This document shows positions 36,311-47,630 of a stretch of 64,000 nucleotides of DNA, one piece after another; position 1 is the first letter of the stretch; each line of letters opens with the position of its first letter. Location of the stretch: contig CM097885.1 of assembly GCA_044892525.1 (NCBI GenBank), forward strand, positions 25,174,001 through 25,238,000. The letters are read 5' to 3'. The notes beneath the pieces were generated by a model that was given only the letters and a program-made list of their open reading frames with translations, searched no databases and had not been told where the DNA came from. A program made the position numbers and the translations under genes. The stretch is from Schmidtea polychroa. Lineage: Eukaryota.

Positions 36311-39229
36311 ATTATTATTATTATTATTATTATTATTATTATTATTATTATTATTATTATTATTATTATTATTATTATTATATTCTACTAAATAGGAAAT
36401 ATTTTAATAACAATAAACAATAGGTTTTCATAACATTTTCAATGATTAATTATTATTATTATTATTATTATTATTATTATTATTTTTAAATTAATTGTTT
36501 TACTGAACTGAAATCGTAACATTAAACTATTGTTTCGTGACAACTTGAAATCAATTAAAACTAAATTATTAATGCGATCTTGATAAGGGCATTCTTCAGA
36601 AAATTTAAATTGTGTGCAAATAATTTCAGAAAAATTCGGATTTTTATTATTTAATATAATTGTCTTTTAATATAAATCTTGAAAAAATCTTTCAATTTCC
36701 AAAATTTGTCAATCTTACGGTTTATATGGAATTAGTTTTACGTGTGATTTGAAAATTACAAGTTTAGGGTTTGAATCCTCCATAAATAGTAAAATTCTAT
36801 CTCAACGTTCGATCTATGAGAAATTATAATAGGACAAATAATAGGATCAAGTAGGTTTGGCTGTTAATTTATCCAATCTTTCCGCTTTAAAGGTGTCATC
36901 ATGGAATACTAGCTTTATTCACTTTTTGTTACGCCACTAAAATCTTTACAAGCGACATAATTTTCAATTTCAACAAAACCTGGAGTGATTATATACATCT
37001 TTGTGGACATTAATGAAATCGTTGTTTTTTCTAATGTAAAAAGAATTAGGAAACAAAACCTGAAGTCAAATTGAAATCTTTCCCAGGTCACAAATGTATA
37101 GTGAAACTGAATATTTTGAAATGATCTTAAAATCGTAGAAAAAGTTTCAAAAATGCAATATAAAAAGTTGTGAGCTATATCGTGCATCGTGCAGCAAAGG
37201 AATATCGTCATTTAAACCAAACGAATACCTTCAAAAACGGAAGCTGCTCTCAAAGAACTATTAGTAGAAAACAAAAAGTAATAAATATTGTAGGGCCATT
37301 AAAAATTATAAAATGTTAGTCCTATTCATTGTGTTGAGGTCTCAATATTCGAAACATCAAAAAAACACAAGAATATAAATATTTATTAATAATAAAAATT
37401 ACCTAAAATAACAATGCAAGTTTCCAAATAAAATCGTATTATCAATTCAAACAATTATTTTTTTTATTCAATTGCTTTTGAGCTACTTTAAAATGACTGC
37501 AAATATGTATTTTGTTAATATGCTATGTAATGCGTGCTTATGTAATAATTACTGCTTTTTAGAAAATCTGTGAGACAAATTCTGTACTATCTCGGGTTTT
37601 AACTATTTCTCCGGATTAACCTTTCGAAATCGCTATAGCGCTAATTTTTGGCGATTGTTCTAAATATTATTGGGATATATATATATATATATATATATAT
37701 ATATATATATATATATATATATATATATATATATATATATATATTGTATTTTGAAATAAATTATTTTAATTTCCGGCTTATACGCACGGAATATTAATAT
37801 ATTAATTATATTTGTTTTCATACTATATTGTATGTTATATATTTAATATATCGTAAAATTAATATCCTATTGCGCGTTATATTTTAATATAATATTAATA
37901 TCTTATATACTATTATATATTAGAAATATGTTTTGCACTTTTAATAGTAATGATTTTTTATACTAATGGTTTATTTAAATTTTATAATAATATTATATTT
38001 AGTTGATATCAATGTTTTATTCATTTAGTCCCTTTTTATTTTAATGTTAAGTAATAAAATATAATTTTTTAATAATATATAAATCACAAAACCATATCTG
38101 TACATTGTATTAAAGAATAAAATTTGCAAGATGAGATATATCACAAAGGATGATCAATTGTTAGCTAAATATGTACAATAAAAGTTAACCAATACAATAT
38201 ACACAGAATAAAGAAATTTATAACATAAAGGAGTCAGTTGTCATAGAAATAAAAATAGAAATAGTCATGATACACATAAAATATGAAACTATCACATAAA
38301 TAAAATAGTCAATGTTGCTAGACTTGATAGCACGAGGGATAATTGATTGTTTCTGGATGGACTGTTTCTGGACGCATATTGCCTGGATTGTATTGTTTCC
38401 CAATGATCCACTTTATTGTCTATATTCGGCACATATATTGACCCTATATTTTCTGGGCCTAGTCTTATAATATTTGTTGAGGTTGAATGTGGTGATGGGC
38501 AACAATTGGAATGTATAGAAAATCTTTATCTAACGGATATATCTCAGTTGGGAACCAAGTGTACCTGTTGTTATTCTTTTATTGACCACGTTAACGACCT
38601 CATTTTATGCAAGTTACACATCATAACAAAGTTTATGGAAAACATCGTTTAATTTAAGTTTAAGAGTTTTTAATTAAAGAAAATATTTAAAATGTTGTTT
38701 CGGGAGAAAAGCCTAATACAAGATTTCTCAATGTTGTCAGCCTCAACATGTATCAAATCTTAAAATTGGTCCATAAGTGAACTGTTCGTAAGAAATTTAT
38801 TATCTTTGTTTCGCACTCGCACTTTTATCGCGCATGTCTGCGATTTTAGATTGCACCATGTTTGAATTTGTTATTTTAATATTGTTTTAACCCTTTTATG
38901 ACTCCTAGTACACATGTGTATCTCTAAAATTTATGCTGGGATTAAACGCTTTTAATTGGATTAAATTAAGTTTAAATGCGCACCATCTGCGCCGACTCAA
39001 AATGTCATGATAACGTCAAATTTGTTCACTTTCCTATAGCACATTAAGTGATTCAGCATGTCCTTTACAAAATTATACACTCCGAAAGGGGTAAAAATCT
39101 CAAAATAGAAAATTGAAATTCATTGGTCATGTATCTGTTTTCCGGCGTCAACTTATCTTTAGACGTTTATTATGAGTAGTAAAATGTGTCACCACTGGCA
39201 CACTCCCCCGGGAGGGATAAAAAAATTTT

Positions 39230-39640
39230 TCAAGGTCAAATTTTAAACAAAGACATGTGACTCATCAAGGTCATCGAAACAAAGACCATGACTCACCACA
39301 TGACTCATCAAGGTCATTGAAACAAAGACCATGACTCATCAAGGTCATTGGATGACTCATCATGGTCATTGAAACAAAGACCACGACTCATTCAGGGTCA
39401 TCGGATGACTCATCAAGGTCATTGGTTGACTCATCAAGGTTATTGAAACAAATACCATGACTCATTCAGGGTCATTGGATGACTCATCAAGGCCATTGAA
39501 ACAAAGACCATGACTCATTGAAGGTCATTGGATGACTCATCAAGGTCATATTTTGAAGGTCAAGGTCATATTTTAAGGTCAAGGCCATATTTTTAAGGTT
39601 GTCATATTTTTTAAGGTCAAGGTCATATTTTTAAGGTCAA
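39230..39640 (+). promoter_or_regulatory. Subterminal tandem array of TGACTCA-TCAAGGTCA-AACAAAG units (21/31-bp), putative enhancer or protein-binding array
   Basis: About 11 TGACTCA by hand count, mostly fused to tcaaggtca, with aaacaaagacca spacers. Mirrored at ~47300-47570. Confidence 0.55.
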
Positions 39641-45652: not shown

Positions 45653-45853
45653 TAAAAATTAATTCATTAACACATAAATAATAATAAAAAATCAAATATT
45701 GCAATGTCGATATTTTGATGTTATTATCATTCATTATTATACAAGTTTTCATTACAAAGACTTGTATAATAATGAATGATAATAACATGAAAATATCGAC
45801 ATTGCGATATTTGATTTTTTATTATTATTTATATGTTAATGAATTAATTTTTA
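45653..45853. repeat. ~200-bp near-perfect hairpin (arms ~97 bp)
   Basis: taaaaattaattcattaac...attatacaagt [short loop] acttgtataat...gttaatgaattaattttta. Confidence 0.9.
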
Positions 45854-47630
45854 TGTTTTTAGTTTTTAGTTAACAATGATTTGTGATAGAAAGTTGAAAT
45901 TATATAATAATAATAATAATAATAATAATAATAATAATAATAATAATAATAAGTAGGAGTTTTACAACATTTATTTCAAAAATACACTGAATGAGATTCA
46001 TCGATTATGACACCACAACTCTGACATCTACTACAGTTTTTCAAACATAAGGAACAAATAATGATATGGCCACAAGGCAGATATAGAATAGAAACTTCTC
46101 GAATTCGACATATACAACATGTAATAAACGGTTTTCTGACTTCATTCAGTAAATTATGTATTGTAATACCAAGTTTATATGCATTAAGAAGGAAGATTTC
46201 AATAAGCTCGCGATATTTTCGGAACCTGAAATCCATACATGTCCAGAAAACCTTAAGCATGTTAATTTCTGTATGGTTAATATTATTTATAGATATTATA
46301 CAGCTGGTTAATTTCAACATCGATATATTGAAGCCGAACTTATCAAATAGATTTTGAATTTCTTGATGTTTGAAAGATTTATTTATTTTGGCCAGGAATA
46401 TATAATCTTCATCATTTATTGTTAGAAGTTTATCTATTATTAAAATAAGAATGATCCCAATCAATAGACAATTCTTGTACCTTATTTAAAATAATTAAAT
46501 TACAAAATAATTATAACATCAAACCTGTGGATCGTTTGAAGTCATCGATGAATATTTGTGAATGTTGTAAATGAAGTTATTAGACCTATTTATATATATG
46601 TTTCATAATAATAATAATAATAATATTAATAATGATAATAATAATAATAATAATAATAATAATAATAATAATAATAATAATAATAATAATAATAATAATA
46701 ATACTTATAATAATAATATTTTTACTTTATTAAAACAAATTAAGACATCATTTGCGCGCACGGATTCCCCTTTGAATTACCTTTAAAATGACCCCTTGAT
46801 CAATAAAATCCAAGCAAAGGTACTCTCAAAATATTAATTTTAAGAAAATACACGCAATCTTTAATTAAACTATATAGCCGCCATCTTGTAAAATATGACC
46901 TTTGAAAGTATAACCATGATACTTACATCTCAAATACCTTTTGTTTGATATGTATATTATAAGGTTTTAAAATTTTTGAACCTTGAACCCTTCGAACTCA
47001 CCATCAAAAGTTCTTTCGAATGATATATATTATATGGTTTTAAAAATATTTAATTTTGGACACCCTTTGAAGGTTATTAACCCCCCTTCGAGGGTATAGC
47101 CATTAGATAGACCTCTCAAATACCTTTCGAATGATATATATATATATATATATATATATATATATATATATAATAATGTTTGAAAAAATTCGAAGGTTTT
47201 TTACCCTTAGAAGGCCGAGGACCCACCATACACCTTCGAGGGTATGACCATTAGATAGACCTCTCAAATACCTTTCGAATGATACCCTTTCGTGAAGGTT
47301 TGACCTTAAAAATATGACCTTGGCCTTAAAAATATGACCTTGACCTTCAAAATATGACCTTGATGAGTCAACCAATGACCTTGAATGAGTCATGGTCTTT
47401 GCTTCAATTACCATGACGAGTCATCCAATGACCTTGATGAGTCATCCAATGACCCTGAGTGAGTCATGGTCTTTGTTTCAATGACCTTGATGAGTCATAG
47501 GGTGAGTCATGGTCTTTGTTTCAATGACCTTGATAAGTCATATGTCTTTGTTTAAAATTTGACCTTGAAAAAATTTTTTTTATCCCCCCTGGGGGGAAGT
47601 GCCAGAGCTGACATGTGCCATCCTACTACT
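45852..47630 (-). repeat. Right terminal inverted repeat (~1.8 kb)
   Basis: Reverse complement of the left TIR, ending ...cctactact. Confidence 0.9.
45976..46464 (-). CDS. IAP-type RING-finger protein (right TIR copy)
   Basis: Near-identical translation to 40853-41338 with a few substitutions; different indel at the 5' junction. Confidence 0.7.
   Translation of the reverse strand: MIGIILILIIDKLLTINDEDYIFLAKINKSFKHQEIQNLFDKFGFNISMLKLTSCIISINNINHTEINMLKVFWTCMDFRFRKYRELIEIFLLNAYKLGITIHNLLNEVRKPFITCCICRIREVSILYLPCGHIIICSLCLKNCSRCQSCGVIIDESHSVYF

Follow-up and report, generated by a model that had tools for sequence, protein, structure and literature searches.

A one-off fold-back derivative of an 18-kb Polinton between intact target-site duplications

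How does a Polinton that lacks integrase and morphogenesis genes, and that carries the same end twice, come to lie between two intact copies of its target site? The question is raised by an 8456-bp element at positions 39175-47630 of the window, by which we mean the whole 64,000-nt stretch C1:25174001-25238000 of an AT-rich eukaryotic assembly of 781 Mb. A first-pass annotation had read the element as a minimal Maverick/Polinton and had offered two origins for it: a replication-competent satellite dependent on others for integrase and capsid, or a copy-back defective genome. Here we describe the element as a one-off fold-back derivative of an 18-kb Polinton, a copy that is both unique and decayed, and we lean towards the view that it is a snap-back defective genome integrated in trans.

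One parental end in duplicate

The element begins with AGTAGT, ends with ACTACT and is bounded by a 6-bp target-site duplication (TSD), ATTATG, at 39169-39174 on the left and 47631-47636 on the right. The TSD match is exact (the chance of such a 6-mer match at 25% GC is about 0.001), and the flanks are not inverted. (AGT)2//(ACT)2 termini, as described in the available text of PMC8097293, and a 6-bp TSD are both marks of Mavericks/Polintons. The ends, the TSD and the 8.46-kb length given in the first-pass annotation are therefore correct, as are its arms of about 2.3 and 1.8 kb, each with a RING gene, and its core of about 4.4 kb with the polymerase gene pPolB and nothing else.

The left arm (39175-41482, plus strand, 2308 bp) is the native left end of the parent described below: terminal inverted repeat (TIR), ATT arrays, RING cassette and the 3' flank of that cassette. 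The right arm (45862-47630, minus strand, 1769 bp) is an inverted copy of the same parental left end, RING cassette included, and its shorter length reflects loss of microsatellite and tandem units. Each arm encodes a C3HC4 RING protein (zf-C3HC4_3; PF13920, E about 1e-6) in an open reading frame (ORF) of 114 aa from the first ATG, at 40994-41338 on the plus strand, its native place just inside the parent's left TIR, and at 45976-46320 on the minus strand. A search of the protein atlas with the RING protein gave leads below 0.9 only. Between the arms, the 4379-bp core holds pPolB alone: when nine proteins of full-length natural copies were compared with the element by tblastn, RING matched twice and pPolB matched, and the integrase, ATPase, protease, two capsid candidates, TBP-like protein and right-end gene of the parent gave no match at E<=1e-3.

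A canonical parent with RING at its left end

A DNA search with the RING cassette returned 326 candidates, of which 40 were scored (about 98% identity), and 21 loci besides the window were fetched. Five are full-length, with both ends and exact TSDs, and measure 18.0-18.8 kb; three are internally deleted with TSDs (L003, L019, L039); two more have a normal right end; the other 11 are truncated, nested or rearranged. The parent encodes an rve+chromo integrase (the rve score lies below the Pfam cut-off), an A32 ATPase, a C5 adenovirus-type protease and a TBP-like protein (L031:4569-5030, minus strand; PF00352, E 6e-15). For one capsid candidate, as a lead only, the nearest atlas clusters include one with a DJR-like family on 15% of its members. 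The family is a canonical Maverick/Polinton. Its TIRs, about 1.1-1.3 kb, fall inside both ranges found in the accessible parts of the literature (46-1447 bp, PMC8097293; 100-1500 bp, PMC10748475), where intact vertebrate Mavericks/Polintons are given as 12.7-24.6 kb (PMC8097293, PMC10748475).

The window element maps onto this coding parent at 95-98% identity. In the parent the RING gene lies just inside the left TIR, and it is absent from the right end in all ten non-fold-back copies whose right end is visible. The position of the gene bears on the plainest explanation, in which a parent that already had RING in both TIRs merely lost internal sequence. Internal deletions bounded by TSDs do exist in the family (the three named above), and some copies carry close to their right end, too, a short module that adjoins the RING 3' flank. 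However, none of the ten other right ends carries RING, the first junction of the element is an inversion, and a RING 24-mer with 93 exact matches genome-wide forms only three inverted pairs, each of a different spacing (5.5, 11.5 and 18.4 kb; 0.06 pairs expected). Because the parents carry RING beside the left TIR only, a simple deletion is practically excluded. The first-pass annotation had reasoned that such a deletion could not double the gene unless the parental TIR already held it, and that reasoning stands; of the two observations that it had expected of a simple deletion, a single-copy structure is indeed found, but a full-length parent with RING in both TIRs is not (0/10).

Two further features of the family were seen among the fetched copies. 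The left and right TIRs of the young copies L013-14, L027-28, L031-32 and L003-04 are 1.0-2.4% apart, at positions where the family itself is polymorphic; left and right TIRs are not told apart consistently by any allele. The TIRs appear not to be homogenised in every round, their haplotypes look mosaic, and copies appear to recombine. Moreover, divergent Polinton pieces (65-86% identity) lie less than 20 kb from copies L005-06, L019-20, L021-22, L023-24 and L037-38, which suggests nested or clustered insertion at these sites.

A turn at a native hairpin, then a jump

Aligned with one natural full-length copy, the element runs from 1 to 6524 forward, from 6524 back to 6393 inverted, and from 2078 back to 1 inverted. 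Both of its ends derive from one parental end, as in a snap-back genome. The turn (junction 1, 45733-45773) sits at a short inverted repeat already present in the parent upstream of pPolB, a hairpin with a 13-bp stem and a 15-nt loop (45746-45760). With the left arm as reference, the loop in the window is in reverse complement, after which the sequence doubles back, so that a near-perfect palindrome of 201 bp (45653-45853), made by the fold-back, separates pPolB from the right arm. About 90 bp past the stem comes the second junction (45853-45862), a jump from parental position ~6393 to ~2078 that skips 4.3 kb via ~2 bp of microhomology; it carries a 7-bp tandem duplication that is present in none of six other copies of the anchor.

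Palindromes are a known artefact of long reads, and a fold-back chimeric read could in principle have produced such a structure in the assembly. In contigs from four public runs at 45560-45900 we found parent alleles and loose ends, and none of the 26 pieces shown (there are 315 more) bridges both junctions, a result that is uninformative for a single-copy junction among ~80 parent copies. Against a misassembly, the arms are 18 substitutions in 1137 columns plus indels apart, a rate equal to the element's own decay, and the element sits between uninverted flanks with an exact TSD. We consider an artefact very improbable. In a separate search of public sequencing runs, seven matching runs were listed, none with half of the query words and no RNA run among them.

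A single copy with a broken polymerase

The window structure is single-copy. Genome-wide, the junction 1 pattern (<=2 mismatches) gives 80 matches, which are the window and 79 native hairpins. The first-pass annotation had proposed a junction search for several loci with the same structure and different TSDs, as would be expected of a non-autonomous family; with one locus in 80 matches, the same internal structure was not found at a second site.

The pPolB gene (41658-45625, minus strand) is a pseudogene. A single premature stop near 45390, together with three frameshifts (near 44070, 43525 and 42190), leaves it split into five stop-to-stop ORFs with no intact frame. This damage, like the 201-bp palindrome, had gone unremarked in the first-pass annotation. 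Its identity is given by relatives, 493 of 5003 candidates at E<=1e-10, with PF03175 on many of the 120 that were listed (PF02945 also occurs in relatives), and by a match to phrog_1907 (E 7e-14); Pfam detects no polymerase domain in the window ORFs or in the reference pPolB, and a PDB sequence search gave 0 matches. Its singletons (8 synonymous and 17 non-synonymous in 3577 columns) are near-neutral, like those of other decaying copies. A polypyrimidine-CAG at the start of the long ORF, with an AG acceptor at ~45625, marks the predicted main exon, and full-length copies have GT/AG-bounded segments more than 1 kb upstream of the long ORF. These segments lie beyond the turn and are absent from the window. 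Should the leader be real, pPolB would have lost its 5' end, with the predicted leader exons and promoter, when the element formed; because the turn removed them the element was probably never self-sufficient.

A self-replicating, linear-plasmid-like satellite family that borrows integrase and capsid would be expected to keep both termini and most of pPolB, and these are indeed kept. However, the structure occurs once (1/80), pPolB is broken with near-neutral singletons, and its predicted upstream exons and promoter are gone. We find this origin scarcely credible, and the suggestion of a replication-competent satellite does not survive.

Fold-backs recur from both parental ends

Five other TSD-bounded coding fold-backs are present in the genome; they come from both parental ends and have five different junctions. 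The one that shares the left end with the window is a 14.5-kb palindrome at G000:C4:87206126-87220607 (L001:3126 to L002:7607; TSD TACTAT). It has arms of ~6.7 kb with RING and pPolB in both, a 1.1-kb centre, and a turn at inverted ATT/AAT arrays.

A right-end pattern gave 863 matches. The first 100 listed span 71 Mb of C1 and include five outward-inverted neighbours at <=20 kb where 0.7 were expected (P=0.0008). Four of the five are bounded by 6-bp TSDs: C1:0.63 (ATAATA), C1:29.6 (ATCATT), C1:42.7 (TCCCAA) and C1:56.3 Mb (TTCATA), measuring 19.2, 15.2, 7.3 and 8.6 kb, with one of the TSDs in an AAT tract. The fifth, at C1:1.35 Mb, has inverted flanks; the five loci together are L061-L070. The right-end fold-backs belong to a sister subfamily with AGTAGATGG ends. 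The copy at C1:29.6 Mb repeats the two steps seen in the window, a turn at a 9-bp microhomology followed, 134 bp on, by a jump; L015 and C2:152.7 Mb have turns with 7-8-bp microhomology and no second end. The five mirror-ended remnants similar to the window element may form a fossil record of defective Polinton genomes.

Eight gene-less loci (L043, L045-L056; about 5-15 kb, interrelated) share modules or ends with the family. They resemble the coding fold-backs in terminal sequence, 6-bp TSDs and mirror build, and differ in being non-coding. Four of the eight have matching 6-mers (one of them 5/6), and one of these four is a full 11.3-kb palindrome; integrase-less DNA with such ends is therefore found at several TSD-bounded sites. 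Gene-less relatives also account for a count that we discarded. With a RING 3' pattern (100 of 146 matches listed), 11 RING-doubled elements had seemed to lie on C1-C2, and eight of the ten fetched proved to be gene-less relatives that share only the short module; the count was redone with a RING 5' pattern.

Large inverted duplications that run past Polinton ends, or whose arms share decay, were also seen at L048-L051, L064-L065 and L073-L076 with L033-L034. They are products of host rearrangement or assembly artefacts.

The arms were duplicated early

If an arm is copied long after insertion, both arms share the decay accumulated by then. In the RING cassette of the window element, 8 of 646 columns distinguish the arms, which have no strictly private allele in common (27 rows); two minor alleles are common to both arms, and each occurs in one other, different copy. 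The per-arm divergence of RING plus TIR (18/2274) matches the rate of pPolB singletons (25/3577; ratio 1.13, 95% limits 0.62-2.08), which argues for an early duplication. The upper 95% bound on the fraction of residence elapsed at duplication is 0.40 under strict and 0.50 under lenient scoring. By these allele counts the arm was probably duplicated before 40-50% of the copy's residence had passed, when the element inserted or soon afterwards. Support for formation at insertion is modest: the Bayes factor over uniform timing is 5.1 (strict) or 2.0 (lenient), and the copies behind it are about 22 out of ~90, picked as the best matches.

The same counts behave as expected elsewhere. The C4 palindrome has 1 shared-private allele and 8 differences in 4528 columns, in agreement with early duplication; we rely on these raw counts, because the model behind a Bayes factor of 0.0 for this locus leaves no room for any lineage variant. 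At C1:141.7 Mb, a rearranged in-situ case, there are 30 shared-private alleles and 2 differences in 3611 columns, and the test is therefore able to detect late duplication in place. For the right-end fold-backs, with ~20 of 863 copies sampled, shared-private counts are uninterpretable.

The TIRs themselves suggest a single source. Of the ten differences between the arms in the inner TIR of the window element, eight are private to a single arm, whereas in full-length copies most left-right TIR differences are shared polymorphisms (12 of 14 in L031), a contrast which points to derivation of both window TIRs from one haplotype. About five alleles are common to the two window arms and absent from 25 other arms; they may mark a sublineage, or may be early decay that was carried from one arm to the other by the copying. 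Overall left-right TIR divergence does not separate the models (10/491 in the window against 5/408 to 9/382 in full-length copies). New alleles within the inner TIR of the window element are unevenly split between the arms, with ~9 on the left and 0-1 on the right.

Replication or repair

We propose that the element arose during protein-primed strand-displacement synthesis. The growing strand would have switched at the 13-bp inverted repeat and copied the displaced strand, or itself, back to the left terminus, yielding a molecule with two left ends. The 4.3-kb jump could belong to the same event, or could have come afterwards as a deletion within a 13-kb palindrome. For such a molecule helper proteins would be enough, since the origin and the integrase sites are expected in the termini, and the integrase of a full-length copy, acting in trans, likely inserted it. 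By analogy with protein-primed strand-displacement replicons we infer that pPolB made the switch on a free linear genome and that the termini sufficed for a helper integrase. The turn at a native hairpin, the early timing, the one-haplotype TIRs, the recurrence at both ends with exact TSDs and the integrase-less TSD-bounded sites all support this origin.

The competing explanation places the event in the chromosome. A break in a full-length insertion, soon after integration, would be followed by fold-back priming at the hairpin and copying of the left arm, and the copied left TIR would anneal to the original right TIR; the TSD would be kept without any integrase in trans. The yeast precedent, in the available text of PMC7467729, is of fold-back inversions in which single-stranded DNA forms hairpins that are resolved by single-strand annealing between opposite homologies. 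With that precedent, the claim in the first-pass annotation that an intact TSD implies trans-integration is too strong, because a chromosomal fold-back annealed between TIRs keeps the TSD as well.

Several observations favour such repair and weigh against the snap-back origin. In-place repair predicts unique junctions, and those of the window, C1:42.7 and C1:56.3 are single-copy; no coding fold-back has moved as a unit, the four copies of the C1:0.63 junction lying in one 0.7-Mb cluster, consistent with local duplication. It also predicts inverted microhomologies of the 7-13 bp seen here. In-place inverted duplications are frequent among the fetched loci, and palindromes that extend into flanking DNA or share decay, at C1:1.35, C1:141.7, C1:176.1, C1:184.7 and C2:124.5 Mb, tell us that the host makes fold-backs in place. 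The outer arm zone, the outermost 300-480 bp, differs more between arms than the inner TIR does, both in the window (21/263 against 10/491, p=0.0002) and in the C4 palindrome (9/354 against 1/505, p=0.002), as would be expected if an original end had been retained; C1:0.63, with terminal TIRs several per cent apart and inner arms almost identical, is the case most like a retained end. Finally, no extrachromosomal form was seen.

Three points speak the other way. In-place repair permits any date after insertion, yet in both the window and C4 the duplication came early. In the terminal zones, new alleles make up most of the differences (18/22 in the window, 5/9 in C4, 22/25 in C1:42.7), whereas the TIRs of full-length copies are set apart largely by shared polymorphisms; in the window this zone (39175-39657, plus strand), which comprises the AGTAGT end, a C/G tract and tandem repeats, departs from the right end in unit number and at 22 substitutions, 18 of which have alleles absent from the other fetched loci. 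And the clear in-place cases run into flanking DNA or lack matched ends. We regard repair in the chromosome as a serious possibility but doubt it somewhat. For the snap-back origin, the structural part of the copy-back proposal is thus upheld (the right arm is the inverted parental left end, and RING is found at 0/10 right ends), and its timing before integration is favoured only modestly (Bayes factor 2-5).

The terminal tandem zone (39175-39657, 47330-47630 and the ends of other fold-backs) has several-fold more new alleles than the interior.

A wider proposal may hold, and we advance it tentatively: that Polintons routinely shed snap-back defective genomes, built from the left or the right end, when protein-primed replication switches template at an internal inverted repeat; that ~2-4% of insertions are such genomes, fixed in the germline by helper integrase (2 of the 90 RING loci, and 4 in the first 100 matches to the right-end pattern); and that they are the seeds of the multi-copy gene-less palindromic satellites of this genome. 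If so, the chromosome holds a readable fossil record of Polinton replication intermediates.

Relation to known systems

Two protein-primed linear replicons, the yeast plasmid pGKL1 and adenovirus, give rise to end-duplicated palindromes, in adenovirus as defective genomes; these are not known to integrate with a TSD. To our knowledge, strand-displacement replication of a free linear Polinton has been inferred from gene content and end motifs and not observed. Particles of Polintons, in the part of PMC8097293 available to us, are reported as not seen.

Compared with Mavericks/Polintons as described in the available texts, the element is alike in its (AGT)2 termini, 6-bp TSD and pPolB, but differs in its 8.5-kb length, its arms of 1.8-2.3 kb, the derivation of both ends from one parental end and the lack of integrase and morphogenesis genes. 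The closest viral parallel may be the snapback genomes (SBGs) of adeno-associated virus (AAV). The accessible portion of 10.1101/2020.10.20.346957 describes 5'-SBGs and 3'-SBGs, helper-dependent, self-complementary subgenomes of the left or right part, symmetric or asymmetric. The likeness is that left-end and right-end types both occur here; the AAV forms were sequenced from particles, whereas fold-backs of the window type are known as chromosomal fossils with TSDs. Yeast fold-back inversions, as far as the text of PMC7467729 was available, share with the window a junction at a short-stem hairpin and capture of the distal part via opposite homology; they differ in that here the bounds are the element termini and the date is about that of insertion. 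In Caenorhabditis elegans, loci with pPolB and TIRs and no integrase have been reported, and the available part of that report describes no fold-back (10.1101/2024.01.15.575659). In titles and abstract openings of the open literature we found no description of fold-back Polintons.

The new observation is thus one of coding fold-back copies whose junctions are mapped onto their parent. The single element is a dead copy, and its value lies in the class to which it belongs and in the clean test that the class offers between viral and host origin. An origin before integration would make the junctions of such copies a direct record of Polinton replication, would show that the integrase works in trans on a molecule whose two ends are alike, and would offer a source for giant palindromic satellites. 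If they are made in the chromosome, long TIRs turn fold-back breaks into rearrangements that preserve the TSD, and an intact TSD around a gene-poor Polinton is no proof of trans-mobilisation. Either outcome changes how defective Polintons are annotated.

Other features of the window

A solo end of the sister Polinton subfamily, with a GTAGATGGATTGGGCACC terminus, tandem repeats and an ATT array, lies at 34075-35270, and no partner for it was found within the window. Outside the element, ORFs of 207-248 aa at 12587-14518 (minus strand) and 29765-30385 (plus strand) resemble transposon remnants.

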